Assembly: GCA_951406725.2 (NCBI GenBank)
Contig: OX597833.1
Location: 31,868,001-31,932,000, forward strand
Direction of reading: 5' to 3'
Length of the DNA stretch: 64,000 nucleotides
From: Octopus vulgaris
Taxonomy: Eukaryota
The first letter of the stretch is position 1; each line of letters opens with the position of its first letter. The notes beneath the pieces are model-generated. The model searched no databases. It had not been told where the DNA came from and saw only the letters and a list, made by a program, of their open reading frames with translations. Positions 1,304 to 57,259 of the stretch are shown here, in pieces. A program made the position numbers and the translations under genes.

Positions 1304-4300
1304 GGGTAATTCTGTATGAAATCAATGCAATTTTTTAAAAAAATCAAAGGTGACTGAAACTGATTTCTTTCAAACTTTGCATGTTAAATGATGTTCATAT
1401 AAAACCCTTAAATATGAAATATTTTTTTACCTGATTAATATTTATTGAGTTACAGCCATTTGAAATTTTCAAAAAAGTGATATTTTTTTTGGTTACTCAA
1501 TAACTTTCAGAAGTCATATCTCACTATTTGAGTTAGAAAGCCCAATTTTTTTCATTTTAAAGCATTCAAATAGATATACAACTTTTGTTTTGTGCATTTT
1601 TCCATACAATAACAATAAAAAATTTTATCTAAAATTTGATCTTTGACTTTTCATAGGTCAAAAGACGCGGTCATAGATTTTTTGGAAATTTTGTCCAAAT
1701 ATTGCCCTACTTAGTCATTACTCACATAAAATAATTCATACTGAGATCTCAATGGGAAGTATTTATAATGAATATAATTATAGTGAAAAATAATGACAAA
1801 TTATCAAGACTAAGCAAAACAATTTGAGCTTGGGGGAGAAAATAAAGAGCTGATAATCGAAATAAGCATTTTTATTATTTCAGTAATAATGTCTACTTTA
1901 ATTGTAACTACTTTTCAGATCTGCTATGGTCAATGGTGGAAATGCCACTGCCAACACTTAGAATCTTCAAACAAATTGTTGGCATCCCCATCACCTAAGA
2001 GGCCACTCCTGATAGCTTAGCAGATGAAGCTACATGTCCCAACCTCCCACTTTTACCCTGCTTTAAATGATTAAGTACTTGTTAGATGAAATTCTGAAAT
2101 CTTCAAAATTTAATGAGACAATTTTCTTGAAATTAATAATTGTGATGCATTTTACATGTCTTTTTCTGTCAAAGTATAAGTTCTTCCTGTAGCAGTTCTG
2201 GGGACAAATTTACAAAAGATGTCTAAATAACACATTGTTAAAACATCTGATTTTCTAGGATACTGAAATGATGTAGGTCCTTTGGGTTGAAGAAAGGTGA
2301 GTTTTACTTGCATAGTTTCTAGGTATGTTTCTAGAACACAGGCTAACCACCAGTCACCATCATAAATTGCTGCTACAAACCCTTTTATATCCTCAAATTG
2401 GATAGCATCTTGCATGGAGATTCTAATTTTAGTATAATTATCTATCATAGATATCATTTTTACCATAATTTCTGAAGATTAGTTTGGGATAAAGCAATGT
2501 AACTTTTGTGGACTTGGAATTGTCCTTGAATTTCTAAATCTCTCTCTCAATAGATTTTCCTCATTTTGCATTTCATCATTTGAGGAGTAAATAAAATTAA
2601 TTCCAGGAATATTTTGCTGACCAGAATCATAAAGTTGTCTTGGAGTCATGATTTGTTCATTGAAAGGGCATTATAAACTTGCTTGAGATGCCATTTGTTT
2701 AATTGTACCTCCTAAGCCATGATAAATAGTAAAGAAATGCCACTCTGCATCAGTTTGGAAATCTATAGAATGGTACCATAAGTTCATAAAATTCTTACAA
2801 TTTTTATATTGTGAAGCAGCACCATCTGAAAAATAGATAATTTTGTTGATATTAATGGCTTTGCTCCAAAGAAAATCTGTCAGCTTTTTTGGAAGAGACG
2901 GACTGCTACTGTACCATGTTTCATAAAGTTGGATACAATAACAATATTGATGTTAGTCACATCATTGTTTTGTTTATGAAAACAGACAAATGGATGGATA
3001 GTGGCTTCAGCATTGTTCCAATGAAATCCTTGTACAGTATCATGCAAGATGAATGAATAATTGTCTGAAAAATCTGCTATGACTAATATTTCTCCGTCAC
3101 TTAAGGATTTTTTTCTTGAAGTGCAAAATTTAGATTGTTCCTTTGCAAGGAAATCATGTACCTTAAGTGCTTTAGGCTTTTGACAGAAAATTTCAACAAT
3201 GTCATCTGTTGATTTTGATATATTTTCTAGGATTGTTCTGTCTGTCGTTAGCCATTGCTTATATTGTACTTCATCAATCATATTCACATTAAACATTTCA
3301 TATAAGAATTTTTCAAGCTCTTCTAACAGAATTACAATTTGAACAGGTTGCTCATGTAGCAGTTGTTTGTTGTTGGGTTGCAAGTAATTGATTCCAAACA
3401 TTGTTTATGATCAATCAAGTGAAACTTCATATCCTTGGTTAAATCAGATAGTTTCATGCCAGAAATCATTTGTTTGGCATTCCGATAAATGGTGCATACA
3501 CATACATTATGTGTACCAGAACTACCTGCAAGTATGCATTCTTTTGGCCTTAGCTCAGCAAATTTTGAGAAACTAATTTTGATTTCAGGATTTTTTGATT
3601 TAAAGAATTGGAAGGCTTCCTTTAAGTTACAAAGTATGAGGTACTTTTTCTCATGGACTCTTTTGCCATCAATTTTTCCTGATTTGTAATCCCTTATCCA
3701 TGGCATAACTCTGCTTACTTCATTTTTATAAAACTGAGAAACACAATTGGCAGTTTCTTGAGGAAATGTGGTTTTTCTATGGTTAGGATGTGATAAAATC
3801 CCTTGCTCATTGACCAACCTTTTAGCTTGTCTAGCTATGTAATCAGGCACATTGAACTCCTTTTTGAATTTTCTTAGAGACCAGCCTTTTTGTCAGAATT
3901 GTTAAAATTTGCAGTTTTTCTGATATTTTTTCTGTTGTGAATTTTTCTTTTAACTGTTTGATTATTTCTCTTTCAGGGTGATGATCTTTTGATGATTAAC
4001 TGACTTCTCTTCTAGGTGAAATGATTTGCATCTTTTGAGCAAAAGCATTTTCCATTTATTTTCTTTTTTTCTCAGCATACATGATGATTGTATCTATCTT
4101 TTATTTTTTATTGGAGATTCTCCAATTTCAGACAAAGCATTGGTGTTGATCTCTAATTCTGCATTTTCTTCTACGAAGACATTTATTGATGATGCAGTCA
4201 CTTCAGTGGTAGTTGATGTATCATCTCTTGTATCTTCTAATACTGGTTCAATTTGAAGTTTGGGCAAAGTTTTTCTGCAAGAGTCACATATTTTTTATCC

Positions 4301-7696: not shown

Positions 7697-9596
7697 CATC
7701 TCTTCTCTTCTCATTAGGCTTGTTGTGTCCAACCTTTCAGGTCTCGAACTATTGAACTAATCACAATGTTCAATCCTTCTTTCTAACATGTCAGTGTTTT
7801 GGAATTCTCTCCTTGCTCATACCTTTCCTGTTGGTGTTCACGAAGAGCATAAATGACATAAGTCTCACTAGTCTAGTAAAGACCTGACAAATCCATGGAC
7901 ACTGCCCCATTCTTTAGTCTCAGCAAGTTGAAAAAATGATGAAAAAGTGTAGTTAATCTTTCCTTCTATGATTAACTTACTTTTATAATCTCATTGTTTT
8001 ATTTAAATAGGTAGGGTTTTATGGATACCCTGTATTTAATTGTATATCTCTAATCAATGGAGGTTGTCTTGAGCATCAATGACGATGCTCCTTTGTACTT
8101 ATGCTAATCACGTAAACCTGTACAATACTTGACACATCTTGTCTGTCTGTGACTTACAGTCCAGATTAAACAGTTCAAAGCTATTCTTATTCCTCAAGAC
8201 TGTCACTCTTTCGGAAATAGATCCACTGTCCATTCTGCTGTTCATTTATTGGTTTCATTCATTGGACTGTGGCCACACTGGGGTATCACCTTCAAACATT
8301 CTAGTGGTCAAGAGAAGTAACAAGTATGGAAGAAATACCAAAAAGGATATATCAATGCAGATATACTTGTGTACACCTCACACACACATGTATGTAGACA
8401 ATGAACTTACACATAGTTTTCCTCAAACAAATTTCCTTTACAATGTATTTATCAGCCTATGGATATAGTAGAAAAATACCCAACATACTGTGCAAGAGGA
8501 TTGAATCCAGAATCATTTACTTACAAAATTAACTTCTATACCACACAGTCTTACCTGCGACTGTGCTGCTTTTAATTTTTATTATAATTTCATCATTAAT
8601 TCTGTTAACGGTTCTGTTTACCATAAATTAACTTCAGATAGGTAGGTTGTTGTTTAATCTCAAATAGGTCCTGATCGAGGTTGTTGACTATGATAAATGA
8701 CATTCCATTTGTGACCATCCCATTTTTTCAATCAGTGTATCCTAGACTACATTAGCCAGTATGCCCTCAAACTGTCTCTCTGGAGAAGTGTTATTTGAGG
8801 GAAATTTGAGTTTAATTTCTAGTAGGTCAAACATTCTTATAGATTGTTGTCTTACTGACTTGTAGCATGAATGAAATCCTGAGTTTTGCCACATACAAAT
8901 TTTAAATCACTATTTAATCACAGTTTGATCATGTGCACAATCAAGATTTTACCCAATTAATGGTTGTTGTTCATGTGATAGTTCTGTAGTCTGTCTGTAA
9001 CTTTCTGTGACTAAAGCCTATAAAATACAGTCAATGAAAGCATCAAATTCAGAGAGTCATGGACTGAGCTTTGAATTACACTCTCTCTATTGCTGTTTTA
9101 ATGGCTGCATATACAATCGAGGACATTGAAAAAGACATGACATGGTATCTGAATATTTGCTTACTATGTTAAGAACCAGCCCAAGTGTTAACATTCAAAC
9201 AGGCATTTTCTTTGCATGCCATACTATGCTATTTCTACTTTACTGCTTCCACATATATTGATTGTAATGCATTGTAGTGAAAATATTCAGCAATCAACCG
9301 ATATCATGATTCCCTGGAATGTTGCCCATGTGATCAGCGAATCTGACCAATCGTGACTTTGCCTGGAGAGAATATTACCCAAATAATTAACAAAATCTGG
9401 CCAATCACAACTTCATAGCTCTAGTAACCATACCAACTTTTGATGTGCTCCTTTCAGAGCCACTCAATCAATATAAAATGACACATGGATATGACCATGG
9501 CCCAGAGAGCTTTGTCATGTAGCCCAAGGCAGAACAGACACTGACTGTGAATAGACATGGGCAGCGACATAATGAATTATTCACAGCAACCCAAGG

Positions 9597-11103
9597 GGCA
9601 ATCTTTCGTTTTAACTCGAAGGTGTGTGCACTGTCTTACGGCGTTCGGTAAATTCCGAATAAAATTTTTTTGTCTATTTTTGTGGGTGGAAATGTACCTT
9701 TTGTTCGAAGTCAGCATAAAGTGAAAGAGAGGCAAAATGGACATGAAGGTGTATATGTGTTGATGGGGTGTGATATGTGTGTGTGTGTGTGTGCGCGCGA
9801 GAGAGAGAGAGAGAGTATTTCTTTATTCACCATAAAGTTGAGAAAAAGAGGGGACAATACGGAGATAGACAAAACAAACGTTGGGGTCTGGATATCGAAT
9901 GAGACGAAACGTATGAATAAACAAACAATTAAAATATATACTATTAAATGAGAATGAGTGATTAACAAAATAGAAAGTGGAGGACGCGGTTGACCCCACA
10001 AACCACATACTCACACTGAAGACTTTGCTTTCTCCTTTTTTACATTCTCGATTAAACAGGTTCTTTCACTCGCAACATACTTGCTATATACTTCCATCTT
10101 TTACGAAACACACTTTGCGACAGTCATTTCTTCTCCAGCCTTATTTTCCGTTTCATGTGGAAAACGAAAAAGTCGATTAGCTCAAGACTGGAGATAAACA
10201 TGCCTGTTGCAATTCCTTTCACTCTCGTCTTCCATACTACTTCTTTCGCCACAGCAACTACCGAGAGAAAACAGGCTCGCTCCTCCCTAATCAGGGAGGT
10301 CGGCGGAACTATCTTAATTACAGATTTGCTCGACAGTTGTACTCTTCTCGAATGCGACTGCAGGTGTTCGACATAAGCCCAGAGTTCAGTCACCTTGGGG
10401 CATTGCACAATCGCGTGCAGGACAGTTTCAATGTCCCTCTCACATCTTGCACAAACAGGCGAAGGTGCACACCCATGTCTAAAGAGCTTATCTCGAACCG
10501 GTAAAGCTCTTCTGTAACATTGCCAGGCCAGGGACTTTTGGTAATTATCCATAGGCCCCGGACCGAATGTTCTTCGGAACAGGCTGGCCAGTTGATTTTC
10601 GTCGAAGCCCAGGGTTTCTCCCAGGACGTCGTCACACTTAAACTCTACTAACCCTCTATAAAAGAACGAGGTTGTACCCCCGCCACCGGCGTTGCCCGAC
10701 TGGGAGAGAAGCACGAGTGCCTGATGGCACTCTACATGCCACACGCCCAACCTCGGTCTACACTTGATCCATGGGTTCAGTTTGGTAAACGATGTGAACT
10801 GTGGAAATAACAGCCTGACGAACGGAGACCACACCTGCTCACCGTCCAGGTAAAGCCAGATGTGCCTAAGTCTGAGCGCATGTCTGCGCATTTTTAGCCA
10901 CGGCAACCCTAACCCACCTTTCCGCGGCTTTTGGCAGCAAATAGAGCGCCTTACAAGCGCCCCTCTGCTGCCCCTCCACAAAAAGCGAAAGAGCAGAGAG
11001 AGAGAGAGAGTCACACAGAGTGACAGCATACATTCCTTATTTATTTTTTCTTGCATCTTTCTGTCAGAGAATGTGCGTGATTGACTGAGAGAGAAAGAAA
11101 GAG

Positions 11104-14913: not shown

Positions 14914-16895
14914 CAGTGTTGCTAACTTAAAATCAGAATTTTATGCTAAATTTCAATGGAAAAAATACAAAAAAAAAAAAAAATGCTAAATATGACAAAA
15001 AGAATGCTGAAGACTAATTGTATGAAAAAGCTTAATTTTTATTTACTTTCTTCAATTTTATTCAGCAATAATTTTTTGAACTTCACTGATTTGATCACTT
15101 TCAGCTGCAGTGCCTGGGTCTTGACTTCTGTATACATTCAAAGTCCCAATCTTGTTAATATGTGTTTTGGAATATCGAAGTTTTTGCAACATTTGCCATA
15201 TCTTTTCAGGCCATATTATATAGACAGTATTGATCTAAGCATAGGAAGATGCATTTTCCTTTTCAATTTTGATTTGATTACACCCATACTACTGAACAAC
15301 CGTTCAACGTCTGCATTTGTGTTTAGCAATGTCAATAGATTAATGGCAAAATTTGCAACATCTCCAAAAGGATTTCCTCCAGTAGCATCTTTATATTCCA
15401 AGACTTCCAGCTAGAATCCCTCAGTATTAGACGTATTTGTCCATTCAACTAAACAAATGTTATTAAACTGAATTTCAATTGAAGCAATTTTTTCTTCATT
15501 TAAATGCATTGCTTCTAAGATAGGTAAAATTAGCTCTTTGAAATGCTGCAAAATATTCTCTACTGAAAAACATTTGATATTCCTCAGTATATTATTTCCT
15601 GGCAAACGGTGCTTGAGCTCTTCATAAAGGCAGAGTAAAAAATTTTGTGCTCTTTTGCAAATATTATTTTCTTTGGTGGCTGTTACAGTCTTCTTGATAA
15701 TCATTTCTGCTATCTTTCTCTTGAACCTGTAGCCTAAATTTGGTTTAGGATCCAGAAAGTTTTCAATAGAAGCATCTGGATCAAGAGGATCAATTCTACA
15801 TGTTGGCAATACTATCATATTAGCAACAGATTTGATCAAATTTGAAAGATCTTCAAGTAATTTTATTCAAACATTTTATTCAATTCCTGAACATGTTTTA
15901 GAATTGGATGCAAAAAATAAAAGGTAAAGTTCACTCCTAGAATCACAAAACATTTCATGTAACGTTTGTGCTGTAAAGCATTTTTCTTTTGTAGTTGTAG
16001 TTTGGAAGTGAGTTTGCAATTCAAACTATTGGCTTAAAATTCTATTTACTGTTGGTTCTATTGACAGCCACCTAGTTGTACAAGAATTCATGATCTTCAA
16101 AGGCTCTTTATCATTGATAGTAAGGTGAAGTTGTTTGTAGGCATTTTGTCTTGTTGAAGAGGACCATTTATAGGTTTCAGATACTAAAAATTCTAAATTT
16201 ATGGGCAAACATTCAGCACAAGTGTGGGATACTGCCAATTGTAAAGAATGACATACACATCTAAATAGAAGTAATGATGGAACTTCTTTTAATTTCTGGA
16301 AAACACCATTGTTAACTCCTATCATTACTCTAGTATTGTCAGTTCCTATAGCCAGTAAATTTTTTATATCTAATTTCTTTGTCACTAATTCAATTTTTAA
16401 TGCATCTGCAATGCCATCTGCATCATATGTTTCTAAAGATACCATACTGAGATATGTACCACTTTTTTGTGAGTGTCACTATAATATATGATAACAATTC
16501 CTAACAACTTGTTTATCCATATATCATTGGATTCATCTAAAAACAAGCTAAATTTTCTAAGCTAAATTTTCTATCTCCTATATCAGAAATCAAATCTCCA
16601 TCAAAATATGGAGCTAGAACATTTCTCACAATATTTGCACGTTTTGTACAATGCAACTTCACTTTGGATATAATATCACTATCAGACATATAATTCTTAC
16701 ATAACTCTATTAAGTGATCACAGCTATTAAATGATTAGTGGCAACAAATAAACATTGCTAAATTTGCTTCAAGCATAAATGTCTTATCATTTTTGGTTTT
16801 AATAAAATTGGTAAGAGGAATCATTTGCTTTGGAATTGATGCCTTATGTTTCTTTGCTTCACAGTGGCTTACTAAAAGAGACTATTTTGCCAACA
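14914..16895 (-). mobile_element. hAT-superfamily transposon relic (transposase pseudogene, one TIR)
   Basis: Terminus CAGTGTTGCTAAC at 14914; minus-strand fragments IGTDNT, RCVCHSLQLA, TRWLS, NADVERLFS (C-terminal dimerisation region). Confidence 0.85.
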
Positions 16896-16954: not shown

Positions 16955-18697
16955 GACTGCAATGGACATGTTGGACAACATACAGGGGGCTTCCATGACA
17001 TACATGGAGGCTATGGTTTTGGTTCCTACAATAAGGAGGGAACCAGGCTGCTGGAGTTCTGCGATGCAAATGATCTTATGGTTCGCAATACTAGTCACCT
17101 AGTCACCTACTGCACTGGCAAACACACTAGCCAAATTGACAACGAAAAAGGGAAAGATGGCTGCTTATAAATGCCAAAACCTTCCCAGGTGAAGAATGTA
17201 CCTTCAACATAGACTGGTAGTTAGCACTTCAGGATCAGGGCTAAATGGATGCCCAGAAGATGACCAGCATGGAGGAGATGGGTCTGGAAGCTTAAAGATT
17301 CTGCAAATGGACAAAGATTTAGAGACATATTACTTGAAGTCTTTAATGAAATAGAAGGGGATATAGCTTCATACAATGTAGAAGACAACTGGAGGTTTCT
17401 ACAGGACAGCCTGCTGAGGGTCACTGACCAGATCTGTGGATGGTGCGAAGTCCCCTCTCGACCCAAAATAACGTGGTGGTGGAACAATGTTGTTGACAGG
17501 GCTATTACAGAAAAGAAACAGGCTTGGAAGGACTGGAAGAACAGTGGTAGCAGGGAATTGTATCAGACTGCCAGAAGGGAAGCTAGGAGACAGGTTTATT
17601 TAGCCAGAGGGAGAGCAGATAAGAAAAAATTTACCAATGTTCTGTGCCGTGAGGACCAAAGACTTGAGGTGTTTCATGATGTAGGAGAGAAATGTGTCCA
17701 CGTGGATGGTGGTTCACTTGCACTAAACGAGGCTGCAAAGAGAGGTTTGGAGACGCCACTATGAAAGGTTGCACAATAAAGAAAATAAACGGGAGTAAGA
17801 GAGTCTGCTGAATGTTGACTCAAAAGAGGGACCAGCTATCTGAATTGACAGTACCTTGGTAGATAAAGCAATTAAGAGTATGAAGACAGAGAAAGCTTCC
17901 AGCCCATCAGGAATCACTGCAGAGATGCTCAAAATATTTGGCGGTGTTGGCTGTAGCCTAGTCACCCGTATAGTTAACCAGGTGATACACGAAGGAGTCA
18001 TACCCAATTACTGGTGTAGCAGCACTATAGTCAACTGCTACAAAGGTAAAGGTGACGCTTTAGATACAAATAATTACAGAAGTATTAAGTCGTTGGATCA
18101 GGTAATGAAGGTCATGGAGAGGGTCATAGCCCAACGAATTAGGGAGAGAGTTAGTTTAGATGAGATGCAGCTTGGGTTCGTGCCAGGGAAAAGCACCACT
18201 GATGCTATATTTCTGGTAAGACAACTGCAGGAGAAATACCTAGCCAAAGATAAACCTCTGTACCTAGCTTTTGTTGACATAGAAAAAGCCTTTGACAGGG
18301 TCCCCCAATCCCTTATCTGGTGGTCAATGAGGAAACTAGGGATAGATGAATGGTTAGTGAGAGCTGTGCAAGCTATGTACAAGGACACTGTCAGTAAGGT
18401 GAGGGTTGGCAACAAGTACAGTGAAGAATTCCGGGTAGAGGTAGGGGTCCACCAAGGTTCAGTCCTCACCCCCACCTATTTATCATAGTCCTCCTGGCAA
18501 TAACAGAGGAATTGAAGACAGTATGCCCCTGGGAGCTGGTCTATGCTGATGACCTTGCTCTAATTGCTGAGTCACTATCAGAACTAGAGGAGAAGTTTCA
18601 GGTGTAGAAACAAGGATTAGAATCGAAGGGCCTTGGAGTCAACCTAGCTAAAACCAAAGTCCTAATAAGTAGGAAGGCAGACAAATCACAAACGCCT
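16955..18697 (+). mobile_element. RTE-clade LINE fragment (endonuclease end to RT)
   Basis: ORF 17856-18488 YKGKGD..NYR, QLGF, AFVDIEKAFDRV, GVHQGS; YADD at ~18542. Confidence 0.9.
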
Positions 18698-47021: not shown

Positions 47022-47587
47022 TCTGTATATATAAAACTGAGAATGTGTGTCTGTCTGTCTGTCTGTCTGTGTGTTTCCCTAAAACTTGAGAACTACACAA
47101 CCAATTTCATTCAAATTTTACACATGCCTTACTTAGGGTACATGTAGTGTCACGGGCAAAAAAGTGTTCAACTTCTTGCCTAGGGCGAGCCCATAGCAAT
47201 ATCATATCTTCTCCACTATTTCAGTCTTATGTGTTAAAAGTGAAACAAAAACATCTCTCTATTTTATGTCAGATACTTTCACTTTAACAATAAAAATTAG
47301 AGATAATAATAATGATTGAATTATATGTAGTAAGTAATAATTAAAATCGAACTAAAGTATATAATAATTAAATCGTAACATAACAATTAAAAGTAAAAAT
47401 AGCAATTGGTATAAAATTGCATCAATGACTTGAACTTGAATAAGTGGTTTCACATGAATGGGAATAAATTAAAAATAAAATTAAAGTGCAGAAATGGAAT
47501 AGTCCAGATGGAGCTGTGCACATACCCTTTACCAGAGCTTTTACGTTAGATTATCTGCTAATTAGCTAGCATTAAGTATCTATATGA
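47022..47587 (+). mobile_element. Helitron 5' half, cut by the ORF1-only element
   Basis: Colinear with 30750-31640 (minus its 30985-31320 insert) up to agtatctat. Confidence 0.8.
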
Positions 47588-49264
47588 AGTTTGGCTGTAG
47601 TCGTTTTTTGGAACCTGTGTGTTTTGCCTGTTATTGTTTATTAAATTTTGTTAAACGGTATTGTTGAATTTTGTCTGTCTGTATTGAGACAGACAAGGAA
47701 AAAACGGTTTGCCCCTCCCTAAGGGAGAAAATGGCAAAGAAAAATGTTTTTACAAGCCTCAGTGAGTCGGACCTGTCGATCTCTGAGGAGGAACTGGAAA
47801 AGGCAGTGAGGAAATTGGACAGAGCACTTGGAGAAAAAACAACATACGCGCAAGCGACAAAGTCAATGGAAAAAGAGATAGACCTGGCTAAGTTGCCAGG
47901 TTATCAAGAATTTGTTATGAAGGTCGGTGGTGAAGTTGAATTGTCACCGCCAAGGAAAAGAAGAGACTGGTATGAGAAGAGGACCATTACGCATAGAGTA
48001 TTCGCCAACGAAAAAAGGAGAATAGAGTTGGTCGGCATGGAAATGGTAGAGGAAGCTCTGAGAATGACAGAAGAGGAGGTAGCGTTTCTCGCAAGAGGCG
48101 TTGGGTTCGGCACCGTGGTTGTACAATTTAAAACCGAAAAAGTGGCAAGGCGAATGGCGGCGAAAACAATGAAGTCGGAGAAGATATTCCTTCTTCCCTC
48201 GTATCTGGGAAGGAGGACGACCTGGATCAGGGTGGAGGGAATACCACCAGACATAGACGGAGAGTGGATTGTGGAAGCCATCATCAGTGCTAATGAAGAT
48301 AAGGTGGACATTCTTCATGCCATGGTGAAGGACGAGGGAGGTTGGAGAGGAGCAGTACTGGAGATGAATGTCTTGTCGGAATCGGAGGTGTTGGAACAAC
48401 TGGCCGAGAATATAACAATGGGAAACATCATTATGAGAGTATGGGTGGAGGGCAGAGCTCCTCGTTGTTACAAATGCGGCTTGAAGGGCCACATAAAAGC
48501 TAACTGTCCTCCCCCAACAAAAAAACAAAGAAAAGAACCAGCAAGAGAGGTAGAGGAGCCCCAGGAGGAGCAGAATACAATGGAAGAGAAGCAAGTGGAC
48601 GAGGAGGAATTACCAGCAGAATGGGAATCTATGGGAAGAAGGAGGAAGAGAAGGAGAAAAAAGGCAAACTGTTCTGAACCCCAACCCACCCCATCACCAC
48701 CTGCACCCTTTGTGGCCCAGGTGTCTGCAGGGGAAGCCCTGCAGACACTGAATCCACCCGTTCCCCACCAACAAGAAAACAAAAAAAAAAAAAAGATAAC
48801 ACAGACACACAGGATAACTTTAAAAATTCTCGTCCCCATATATTAGGTGTAATAAATAAGGAAGAAATACGTGAAATATTGAGGGACTGGGGAAAGGTGG
48901 AATTGCAAGACAGCTGGGATATGGCGGGGTTGATGTATGTAGTAATATCAGAGGACCAAGAAAAAGAACTCAAGGAAAAACTTTAAAAAAGTTATAAATT
49001 GATTACGAAAACAATTGAACCGGATAAGTGATATGAAGTGGAAGAAATATATGGGATGAAACTGAAGGACTACATGTTTTTTATACCGATATAGGGAAGA
49101 AGGACAGGTAAGTGATGTTATCGGATGGGGCCGTTAACATCGCTCTCATTTCTCATTTTCACAATTTTTCATCTTTCATACGTTTCTGTATTTTTGTGAT
49201 GTTTTGTGTCCCCAATGTTTGTAATGTCCCCCTCTATGTAAGCCCTTTATGGGTAATAAAATAT
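47588..49264 (+). mobile_element. ORF1-only non-autonomous non-LTR retroelement (half-LINE)
   Basis: Short 5'UTR, gag-like ORF1, no endonuclease/RT, pyrimidine-rich 3'UTR ending GCCCTTTATGGGTAATAAAATATA. Confidence 0.75.
47731..48846 (+). CDS. Tx1/L1-type ORF1p: RRM-like region + CCHC zinc knuckle
   Basis: MAKKNVF...; IRVEGIPPDI; VWVEGRAPRCYKCGLKGHIKANC (CX2CX4HX4C); basic RRRKRRRKK; a frameshift in the A-run at ~48781-48794 probably hides an extension to ~49000 (..HILGVINKEEIREILRDWGKVEL..). Confidence 0.8.
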   Translation: MAKKNVFTSLSESDLSISEEELEKAVRKLDRALGEKTTYAQATKSMEKEIDLAKLPGYQEFVMKVGGEVELSPPRKRRDWYEKRTITHRVFANEKRRIELVGMEMVEEALRMTEEEVAFLARGVGFGTVVVQFKTEKVARRMAAKTMKSEKIFLLPSYLGRRTTWIRVEGIPPDIDGEWIVEAIISANEDKVDILHAMVKDEGGWRGAVLEMNVLSESEVLEQLAENITMGNIIMRVWVEGRAPRCYKCGLKGHIKANCPPPTKKQRKEPAREVEEPQEEQNTMEEKQVDEEELPAEWESMGRRRKRRRKKANCSEPQPTPSPPAPFVAQVSAGEALQTLNPPVPHQQENKKKKKITQTHRITLKILVPIY

Positions 49265-49265
49265 A

Positions 49266-50110
49266 AGTAATGTCTGTTTTCTCGAACATACGCTTCTACT
49301 GAGTACAGCTTTTGGTTTATTTCTTATCCATAAAGGACTATAGCTTCTACTGCGTACTGCTTTTTGATTCACCGTAAGGTTTGTTGTTATTATTATTACT
49401 GTTTAACTATTGTTATCACGTTTGTTGGTTCCTCGTAAGGGAAGCATTTGTTAAATAATTGTAAACCGTAACCCTTCCCCTTTGGGAGAAGGAGCTTTGG
49501 TTATTGTTTAAAAATTGAGTTGTGTCCCTGTTTGGGGAAATTGACAATATTTTCACCGTTTATACGGAAGCATTTTTGTTAAAATGTCTCGATAGAAGAA
49601 AGTCCAAAAATGAATTTCACTACAGCCGTCAGCAGGCGCTAACTCATTAAAATTAAAGTGGAAGAAATACAAACCTATTTCGGAATGATCACCGACAAAG
49701 ACGGTGAATCTAGGATAACATCACCAAACGAAATAAAAAATAAGATTAAAGAAAAGACTATTGTCTATAAAGTATACAATGTAGAGAAAAAAAAAAGATT
49801 TGAACACCTGGAGGAAAGCACCATCGAAAAGTGTCTTGGTGAGACTATGAAAGACATCTAACCAGAGGCGGTAAATTCGCCACAATAGAAGCAAGGTTCG
49901 GGTCAACGGAGCGTGCAAGGGAATACTCGACTCGAACCTTGCAAAGTGGAATTATTTTAATTTTACCTTTAAATCTGGGACGTAGAACGTCCCAGATAAA
50001 AATTAAAAATGTCCCCTCAGAAGTAGAGGTAGGCTGGATTGTAGCCACACTTCTATACAAGAGGGAGGACAAGATACAATTGATTGAAATTGCAAGAGAT
50101 GGGCCTACAA
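49266..50110 (+). pseudogene. Second, diverged ORF1-bearing element (5'UTR + truncated ORF1)
   Basis: EKTIVYKVY..RGGKFATIEARF..LPLNLGRRTSQIKIKNVPSEVEVGWIV aligns to KRTITHRVF..RGVGFGTVVVQF..LPSYLGRRTTWIRVEGIPPDIDGEWIV of the upstream ORF1. Confidence 0.8.
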
Positions 50111-50876
50111 TTCCAGTCTGTTATATATTTTGAGTATTGTTATCACTAGCGATATCAAGATATAACTTTGTATTTTGTACTTTATGTGTAGATGTATATA
50201 TATAGATGTACATGTAATATTTACACAAATATATACACATATATACATGCATAATATATCCACCCATACACACATACGCACACACACACATAAATAGGGG
50301 CAGGTGTGGCTGTGTGGTAACAAACTATGTTCCAAACACATGGTCCTGGGTTCAGTCTTACTGTGTGGTGACTTGGCATGTGTCTTCTGCTATAGCCTCA
50401 GAGCAACCAAAGCCTTCTCAGTGGATTTTATACATATATACTGGCATAAATACATATATATACATGCATACGTACATATTCGGTATAAACACTCTACCAC
50501 TACTACTAATAACTGTTGGGAACACTTTCAAACCTGCCTTACATTCGAACTGGAATCTCAAAAACATTGTCCCCTTACATTTCATTCTCATTTCATTCCC
50601 AACACAGGGAAATAAAACTTACTTCTCACTACGGGACGATGGAACATGGTAACAGATACTTACCACATGCTACCTTATCAAGTGAAGTATATTGTCATCC
50701 ACTTCACCTCTAACCTTCATAGCGTACGGACAATTCAAATGACCCCACACTACTATACCACCACTGATACCTTCATCCTTCTAGCTGTGTGAATATGACA
50801 GAATTCATTTCCAGCCAAATAATATTCGCAACACGATTCATAATCACTCCGTCCTTTCCTATTACTATTTCTCTCG

Positions 50877-51100
50877 TCTATATATACAAAAGTGAGAATG
50901 TGTGTCTGTCTGTCTGTGTGAATCCCTAAAACTTGAGAACTACACAACCAAATTCATTCAAATATTACACATGCCTTACTTAGGGTCCATGTAGTGTCAT
51001 AGGCAAAAAAAACCAAAACTTTTTGCCTAGGGCGAGCCACAGCAATATCATATCTTCTCCACTATTTCAGTCTTACGTGTTAAAAGTGAAACAAAAACAT
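50877..51100 (+). mobile_element. Helitron 5' fragment
   Basis: TCTATATATACAAAAGTGAGAATGTGTGTCTGTC..., colinear with 30750-30975. Confidence 0.75.
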
Positions 51101-51778
51101 TCCATGGGTGTTGCCACTTTCAGCAGCTGACTGGATACTCTGACAGATTTCCTGCCAATACCTATTTGCACAGCGTCTGGCAGTCAGTTGGGTTTTATTT
51201 CTTGCTTTCTGAGTTCTTCGAGTGACTTTGTAGAAGAATTACTCTTGTATAGCATCAGAGCTGCACGCTTCGCTTCAATAACTGTTTCCAGCTCTGAGAG
51301 CCCAGCACTGAACCAATCTGGGTTTTGCCTTTCTCTCATGCCGAAAGTATCTATTGATATAGTATACAAAGCTTCCCTGATATAATTCCACCTACTTACA
51401 GCAGAGGAGGTTGGGCAGCTACTGAGGGCAACCTTAATAGAAACAGCAAAACATTGTCGCAGTGTAGGGTCCGAGGTGCTGGCAGTGTTAATGCATAGTC
51501 AGCCCATTTTCTTGGAGTGATGGACTTTTTTAGGCAGAATCCTCACCCTGCTTCATATTAGTGAATGATCTGTGTCACAATCTGCGCTGTGGTTACTACA
51601 GGTCAGTTGAACATAATTCAGAAAGGATCTTCGTGTAATGGTGAGATTTTGGATGTCTCCAAGATGCCTTGTGGGATGTATTGTTGGCAAAGAATGTGTT
51701 AGTGATGTACAGGTTATGGTATGTGCAAAATTCAAGTAATCTCTGACCATTGTCATTCATGTTGCCAATGCCAAAACA
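51101..51778 (-). mobile_element. Inverted fragment of the same RTE (copy 3)
   Basis: Reverse complement matches 23176-23660 and 55073-55231; includes MNDNGQRLLEFC and DTDH endonuclease motifs. Confidence 0.9.
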
Positions 51779-55073: not shown

Positions 55074-57259
55074 TCTGATGCTATACAAGAGTGATTCTTC
55101 TACAAAGTCACTCGAAGAACTCAGAAAGCAAGAAATAAAACCCAACTGACTGCCAGACGCTGTGCAAATAGGTATTGGCAGGAAATCTGTCAGAGTATCC
55201 AGTCAGCTGCTGAAAGTGGCAACACCCGTGGAATGTATGCCGGTTTGAAGAAGGCCCTTGGTCCATCTGCAACCAAGTCACCCCCTCTGAAATCAACTAC
55301 TGGAGATCTCATCAAGGACCAGCGCAAGCAGATGGATCGATGGGTGGAGTACTACCAGGATCTCTACTCATGGTAGACCATGGTAGCTGAGGCTGCAATC
55401 GAGGGTGTCAAGATCTTGCCAGTGATGTGCGAACTTGACAGGCTGCCATCTATAGCAGAGCTCACCAAGGCTATTGACTCCCTAGCAAGTAACAAGGCTC
55501 CAGGAAAAGACGGCATCCCCTTAGAGATCATCAAAACCGGCAAAAACACCATCCTGCTTCGGCACCTTCATGAGCTTCTGTGTCAGCGCTGGAAAGAGGG
55601 TACAGTCCCTCAGGATATGTGAGATGCTTACATTATTACGTTTTACAAAAAACAAAGGTGACCGTGGTGATTGTAACAATTACTGTGGAATATCTCTTCT
55701 AAGCACTGTTAGAAAGGCCTTTGCTCGCATCATCCTGTTCAGGTTACAACTGCTTGCTTCTTGAATTTATCCAGAATCGCAGTGTGGCTTTAGAAGAAGC
55801 AGATCAACTATTGACATGATATTCTCCATACGCCAACTTCAGGAGAAGTCCAGAGAGCAGAAAATGCCATTATATATGGCCTTCATTGATCTGACAAAGG
55901 CCTTTGACTTGGTAAGTAGAAAAAGCCTCTTCATCCTGCTCCAAAAAATTGGATGTCCACCAAAGCTGTTGAGGATCATCAAATCCTTCCAAGATGATAT
56001 GCAAGGCACCATACAGCACAATGTTTCAACATCAGCCACCTTCCAAATAAAAAATGGGGTAAAGCAAGGTTGTGTCCTTGCTCCTACATTATTTGGCATC
56101 TTGTTCTCGCTGCTGCTGTCACATGCCTTTGAGACATCAGATGATGGAGTGTTTTTGCACAGTAGAAGTGATGGGAAACTGTTCAATCTCTCGCGTCTGC
56201 ATGCCAAGACCAAAATCAGAAGCATCCTGATCAAGGAGATGCTATTTGCTGATGATGCCGCTCTGGTATCACACACAGAAGAAGCCCTACAAAGGCTCTT
56301 CAACTGTTTTGAGCAAGCATGTAGCAACTTTGGCTTAGTTATCAGCCCCAAGAAGACCAACATCATGGGTCAGGCTACATCGGACATCCCAAACATACAT
56401 ACTGGAGACCACAGGCTACAGGAGGTGGAGAAGTTTACCTATCTTGGCTCTACCGTCACCTACAACCTATCCCTTGATGCTGAGCTCAATATACGCATTG
56501 GCAAGGCAGCTGCTGTGATGGCCCAATTCTCCAAACGGGCATGGGACAACAATAAGCTGACCAAGACCACAAAAATGAAAATTTACCAGGCATGTGTAGT
56601 TAGCACTCTACTGTATGGAAGTGAGACTTGGACACCATACACACGCCAAGAGCGTCGCCTAAATATCTTTCACCTGTGCTGCCTCCAGAAAATCCTTTGC
56701 ATCAAATGGCAGATCATGTCCCCAACAAAGATCTCCTCAAGCAAGCAGGAATACCAAGCATGTTTGCACTCCTCACACAAAGATGTATGAGATGGCTTGG
56801 ATATGTTAGCCATATGGAAGATGGCAGAATCCTAAGGGACATACTCAACGGAGAGCTTGCTAGGGGCACCAGGTTTGTGGGAAGACTGTTCTTATGATAC
56901 AAGGATGTTTGCAAAAGGGACAAGAATGCCTGCAACATCAATGTTACCAACTGCGAAGCAGTTGCCAGCAACCGTGGAGATTGGCAACATACCGTAAAAG
57001 AGGAAACACAAAGGAGTGACATAGAGAAAGAGGAGAAATGGAAAGACAAGAAAAGACTTCAACAAGAAACTATGACATTACAACTAACCAGGCAAGGTCT
57101 TCGCTACATTTGCGGCACCTGCTAGAGGGAGTGTTTGTCCAGGATAGGACTACACAGCCACAGTAGGAGATGTATTAGGACTTGAAATGTAAAAGCCGGA
57201 CTAGATTATTTTATGCACAACTCCATTGTCTCCCGAGACAAAAAGGATGCCAACAACAA
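55073..57259 (+). mobile_element. RTE (BovB-like) LINE copy 2 with intact 3' end
   Basis: ORF 55816-56790 RT (LFADD); no mariner at gtttacc-TA-tcttggc; (CAA)n tail at 57251-57259. Confidence 0.93.

Follow-up and report, generated by a model that had tools for sequence, protein, structure and literature searches.

At about positions 47600-49266 of the window (the whole stretch of 64,000 nucleotides of Octopus vulgaris DNA that was analysed; features lie on its plus strand unless stated), a predicted RNA-binding ORF1 abuts a LINE-type 3' end in a unit of 1.67 kb in which ORF2 would not fit, and the question is whether this unit is a one-off deletion or belongs to a family that moves without an enzyme of its own. 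Our data point toward the second answer, with a probability of roughly 85%: the unit would be a frameshifted copy of a multi-copy ORF1-only retroposon family, likely mobilized by TPRT with ORF2p from L1/Tx1-type LINEs of the same tail, and duplicated by a Helitron. The lack of space for an endonuclease or a reverse transcriptase (RT) between ORF1 and the 3' end, claimed in the preliminary description, was borne out in this copy. The start of the unit, previously put at 47588, had to be moved to about 47596-47600, since empty copies of the host repeat extend to 47599; the 5' UTR spans 47600-47730, and its first 2 to 4 bases are ambiguous because of microhomology with the host. A reading as an LTR element or retrovirus was rejected, direct terminal repeats being absent.

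The reported open frame of 371 aa from an ATG is found as it stands at 47731-48846 and keeps the family frame to about 48720. It had been called uninterrupted, which holds for the open frame and not for its intactness: at 48721-48736, copy alignment revealed an inverted insertion (net gain of 11 bases, reverse complement of the adjoining sequence) that is private to the window among 10 aligned copies and shifts the frame, so that the last ~42 aa are off-frame. This inversion, which may be an assembly error, is the frameshift that had been assigned to the A-run at 48781-48794; the family frame crosses the A-run and, in this copy, hits TAA at 48984 and TGA at 49029 before it ends at TAG (49092-49094), and the C-terminal coding region at 48737-49094 is left stranded. 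A longer frame thus exists, as had been suspected, and its family length is ~450 aa instead of the proposed ~420 aa, in line with 445 to 473 aa in intact relatives. Judged by its sequence, the window copy is dead, being frameshifted and carrying stops.

The CCHC zinc knuckle of ORF1 (C-X2-C-X4-H-X4-C; aa 245 to 260, 48466-48507) is seen in the sequence and by profile search (Pfam zf-CCHC, E = 6e-4; 20.2 bits, just below the cut-off of 20.8). Searches with ORF1 against Pfam and the sequences of solved structures returned nothing beyond this knuckle, and a protein search with the window ORF returned a single homolog. The RRM-like region that had been noticed in ORF1 was recovered in an AlphaFold model of aa 1 to 290 (29-row alignment; mean pLDDT of 80). 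In Foldseek, this model best matches proteins with tandem RRMs (E = 6e-5), albeit at a TM score of only 0.25. In VIA-align, aa 75 to 161 matched RRMs (best Z of 9.0, rmsd of 2.5, 79 residues) and aa 160 to 243 matched ACT/ferredoxin-like domains (Z of 8.4), both barely over the background of the tool. We regard the RRM-like fold of aa 75 to 161 as a fair prediction; together with the second small alpha/beta domain predicted for aa 160 to 243, it takes up 47953-48459, and ORF1p may well bind RNA.

The 3' UTR had been described as closing in a stem-loop and AATAAA. The latter is present at 49255-49260 in the terminal tail (49201-49266), which finishes in a short A-rich end; the stem-loop before it (49242-49254) is small and, with a z of −1.7, not significant alone. 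A stronger hairpin of 13 bp with a G-rich loop lies just after the stop (49112-49143; z of −3.0) and is overlapped by a conserved motif with GTAAGT, the two spanning 49101-49143. Across 18 sequences, 96% of the cells of this hairpin are paired and two pairs have changed on both sides, although kinship may inflate these counts. GTAAGT itself (49108-49114; also noted at loci L150, L164-L166, and L169), which resembles a splice donor, is invariant at the ORF1 end in 18/18 aligned ORF1-only sequences, and three autonomous families have it as well where their ORF1 meets ORF2. Within arrays, an invariant motif of this kind might promote read-through transcription.

The last 60 bases of the unit align with the tail of an intact LINE better than 2000/2000 shuffles do, and they match the tail of a second LINE family (shuffles as good, 0/2000) and that of a SINE-like repeat too. 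Because of these three matches, the tail does not pin down the partner LINE. A 29-base tail pattern, searched for an autonomous parent, gave 5 matches, all of them known ORF1-only copies. At L163 (minus strand, about 9400-9900 counted from its far end), the SINE-like repeat is arranged in tandem and shares its terminal motif with the ORF1-only elements. A related element outside the unit, a 5'-truncated, ORF2-bearing LINE at 9838-10998 (minus strand), carries a more distant version of the tail; its (TC)n-flanked family is abundant and has intact full-length relatives among L091-L119.

Relatives of the unit, found with the unit as query, extend over the same 1.6 to 1.7 kb at 94% down to 67% identity. 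A 17-base motif from the ORF1 end occurs 426 times in the genome (reversed control, 0), and 400/426 copies run on into the 3'-UTR hairpin, which speaks for a non-autonomous family and against a one-off deletion, as the preliminary description had proposed; all 30 fetched motif copies reach a poly(A) signal within 151 to 163 nt. It had also been pointed out that, after a one-off deletion, the other copies should all carry ORF2 before the same 3' end. ORF2 was found upstream in 0/30 tail loci and in 0/110 motif matches. Of the latter, 88 are preceded by ORF1 and 22 by neither ORF; by their position, 18 of the 22 were judged to be a look-alike motif in the Helitron. At the tail loci, the contiguity rule for ORF1 missed it at 12/30, and 7 of those match ORF1 otherwise.

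Target duplications and selection on ORF1, to which the preliminary description had looked for a decision, are both in evidence. Eight non-array units each have their own target duplication of 13 to 22 bp, as counted by a script that scored matches of at least 11 and passed over units lacking one; one sister copy (L046) has its duplication in a 5' UTR that belongs to the window's subfamily. Between subfamilies (48 to 85% protein identity), dN/dS of ORF1 is 0.05 to 0.31 by NG86 (24/36 pairs) and 0.11 to 0.45 by YN00 (27/36 pairs); 9/36 pairs gave no value, and NG86 was saturated for a further three. Hence, ORF1 is under purifying selection, and because the subfamilies share one ORF1-to-3'-UTR junction, this selection probably acted after the loss of ORF2. 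Target duplications and purifying selection fit a retrotransposing ORF1-only family. Furthermore, comparison of one ORF1-only unit with a sister gave 62 A>G and 8 T>C changes on the sense strand, an excess that in our reading reflects editing of an RNA that was later reverse-transcribed. As for the choice of target, insertion 30 bases behind a TATA box was seen at 2/8 non-array sites and is not supported as a rule. There is a weak preference for 5' regions of other LINEs, which were present in 12/28 downstream flanks compared to 3/30 controls (p = 0.006) and, minus the array junctions, in 8/24 (p = 0.046), the sample being ascertained.

A tree of ORF1 sequences places the ORF1-only subfamilies together with an Octopus sinensis protein (support 88/97), apart from autonomous ORF1s. 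The identity of the window ORF1 to sampled autonomous ORF1s of two ORF2-bearing families is 29 to 30%, aligned over the core. Several octopods have annotated ORF1s that are related; of the nine examined, P0001 alone has the window clade as its nearest group. A second ORF1-only family sits elsewhere in the tree, which suggests a second origin. Its copy at L159:2431-3759 (plus strand; 443 aa) has a longer 3' UTR and the same tail and heads the C14 array.

It is quite unlikely that ORF1-only copies are made recurrently from autonomous LINEs by splicing or deletion, with the selection on ORF1 acting in the parents. The perfect GTAAGT at the ORF1 end, which the intact LINE also has between its ORF1 and ORF2, would suit such an origin, and so would the scope of the searches: no autonomous LINE whose ORF1 is close was found among the 150 of 13,363 ORF1 candidates that were scored, and 26/426 motif copies fall outside the hairpin pattern, most of them unread. 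However, the copies still contain the GTAAGT donor, which argues that they were not spliced there, and none of the 13 rows of the well-supported window clade is known to carry ORF2.

The window copy in particular has a host, which the preliminary description overlooked together with the fact that the copy is dead. The unit is flanked by the 5' arm (47022-47599, starting with TC) and the 3' arm (49267-50251) of a repeat whose empty copies join 47599 to 49264/49267: among 19 loci that match the right arm (L012-L030), 18 join 47599 to about 49264, and this empty-site joint recurs in 3/4 public runs compared. Empty copies begin with TC, and 12/19 end, by eye, in a hairpin and CTAG before a T. A 5' TC, a 3' hairpin with CTAG, and insertion between A and T are traits of Helitrons, and by these features the host repeat is a non-autonomous Helitron. 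The window's Helitron is without the usual 3' end at 50251; other repeats and the head of a second Helitron follow at 50251-51101, an extension shared by some sibling composites. Within its 3' arm, about 49584-50095 is the degraded 5' part of another LINE's ORF1.

The same composite of unit and Helitron is present at eight other loci with 91 to 94% identity, and in seven such composites the insert (divergence of 0.055) is as diverged as the host flank (0.057), which makes it most likely that a single insertion was copied together with the Helitron. The window copy, with no clear target duplication, has likely multiplied as a Helitron passenger to at least eight other loci; by itself it is an ordinary dead passenger.

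Tandem arrays are formed by a young subfamily, 65% identical by protein search, whose units lie 1.7 to 1.8 kb apart, and the four arrays read each hold about 10 to 14 units head-to-tail. The C2 array has an intact ORF of 471 to 473 aa in 11/14 units. The 5' junctions in the arrays vary, and short 5'-truncated units occur in the C14 array. All four arrays sit within a deleted form of the window's Helitron family, and arrays are found on many contigs, interstitially and far from the contig ends (e.g., C2 at 138.8 of 215.6 Mb). At C2, 14/14 units form one clade with some identical members, which fits duplication at the DNA level.

Two of the four arrays finish in a full LINE bounded by a 13-bp duplication. 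This intact LINE encodes an ORF2 of 1131 aa with endonuclease, RT, and zinc-finger domains; one of its matches is named "Transposon TX1 ... 149 kDa protein" (38%), and it matches human L1 ORF2p (E = 7e-65). Its AP endonuclease, RT, zinc finger, and sequence-specific target mark it, on sequence grounds, as L1/Tx1-type. Of its 30 best-matching copies, 24 occupy one Helitron site, and there the bodies differ by 0.008 and the flanks by 0.069 (276/276 pairs). With bodies far closer than flanks, these copies were inserted independently, even though picking top matches favours low body divergence. The target site lies within a decayed piece of another ORF1 carried by the Helitron; the corresponding position in the window's 3' arm, about 49804-49817, is unoccupied. 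There are also tandem arrays made up of the autonomous LINE itself, with a spacing of about 5.26 kb (G000:C3:34858820, C4:143171421, C27:32957896, and others).

Could copying at the DNA level alone, by Helitrons and tandem duplication, have multiplied a single internally deleted LINE? This account holds for the window copy and its eight siblings, with their identical junctions and equal divergence of insert and host, and units are closer within arrays (0.009) than between them (0.018). For the family as a whole, it is largely refuted and very unlikely: it does not provide for eight different target duplications, one of them (L046) in the 5' UTR of the window's subfamily, for a dN/dS far under 1, or for the strand bias of the A>G changes. 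Moreover, array units are 0.016 apart while their Helitron flanks are 0.033 apart (n = 4), and the units intermix across arrays in the tree. That ORF1 was domesticated by the host, like L1TD1 in mammals, or serves the Helitron instead of its own RNA is barely credible, for despite the many intact array ORFs (as at C2) and the strong tie to one Helitron family, the copies are dispersed, decay when old, and keep LINE termini, with no sign of a fixed single-copy locus.

For the retrotransposing ORF1-only family, we propose the following cycle, which as one mechanism is very probable in our view. The RNA of the unit would be translated to ORF1p, which would coat this same RNA in cis, and this binding in cis may be why ORF1 was retained. 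The two hairpins and the tail may then recruit ORF2p from an autonomous relative, as the shared tail and the co-location suggest, and insertion would obey the targeting of the borrowed enzyme. Arrays might grow by repeated insertion together with local duplication of DNA. The family itself presumably has a single origin, in a LINE that lost its ORF2; no such parent was found, and it may be extinct.

With an ORF1p but no ORF2, an ORF1 homologous to LINE ORF1, a shared 3' end, sister copies that retrotransposed as a unit, and ORF1 under purifying selection, the octopus family has the properties of an ORF1-present non-autonomous LINE. Mammalian L1 ORF1p is not known to have a CCHC knuckle, and an ORF1p without a zinc knuckle, which would define HAL1 strictly, is not what is seen here, CCHC being present. 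Passages of Kojima 2018 (PMC5786205) name three ORF1-present non-autonomous LINEs, HeT-A (Jockey), HAL1 (L1), and Ag-Sponge (CR1), and with the octopus family, a mollusc lineage of L1/Tx1 type joins these listed origins as a fourth setting. As portrayed in sections of PMC5753468, PMC3627910, and PMC5786205, HAL1 (half-L1) of mammals is similar in its sole ORF1, its LINE 3' end, its long-retained coding capacity, and its several independent origins; it differs from the octopus family, which has a CCHC knuckle, a mollusc host, and tandem arrays in a Helitron.

In Drosophila, HeT-A and other telomeric elements of the ORF1-only kind likewise have only a gag-like ORF1 and form head-to-tail arrays with an autonomous partner (passages in PMC6719617 and PMC13534243), and about 40% of the telomeric families are ORF1-only according to a part of PMC13534243. 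However, the Drosophila elements are of the Jockey clade and telomeric, whereas the octopus arrays are interstitial and in Helitrons. Ag-Sponge of Anopheles, a bipartite, ORF1-present non-autonomous LINE, differs in being CR1-derived (excerpt of PMC5786205). The targeting of a non-autonomous DNA transposon by LINE machinery, with tandem insertions around the duplication, is paralleled by Xenopus Tx1L in Tx1D and crocodilian SINEU-3 in Mariner-N4_AMi, where Tx1 targets DNA transposons and SINEU-3 is in tandem (parts of PMC4494074 and PMC6719617); in the octopus, the target is a Helitron, hit at a site in its captured LINE ORF1 fragment, and the passengers have an ORF1 of their own. A cephalopod or Tx1-type ORF1-only family was not found in the accessible literature, Repbase and most subscription papers being beyond reach. 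The repeat annotation of Octopus vulgaris (PMC13282606) counts active L1-Tx1 and Helitron families and does not describe ORF1-only elements in the main text or methods, and the passages of PMC9115989 do not mention Tx1 or Helitron.

It is a tentative idea, somewhat less probable than its opposite, that the parasites are stacked in three tiers. A Helitron would have captured a scrap of LINE ORF1 and spread it as a landing pad for a site-specific LINE, and several independently derived ORF1-only families might ride the enzyme of this one LINE and pile up as HeT-A-like, non-telomeric arrays that the Helitron can copy. With young intact units beside an intact partner, the old puzzle of ORF1 retention in a non-autonomous element becomes directly testable.

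Two further observations concern other sequences. The ORF1-end motif occurs six times with a period of 3.6 kb at G000:C1:216932638-216950573 (L273), where the 10 kb read contain no plus-strand ORF of at least 230 aa and no ORF2. In the window, remains of RT-like and transposase-like ORFs were recognized by eye at 17264-18488 and 55765-56790 (plus strand) and at 2880-3892 and 15411-15866 (minus strand).
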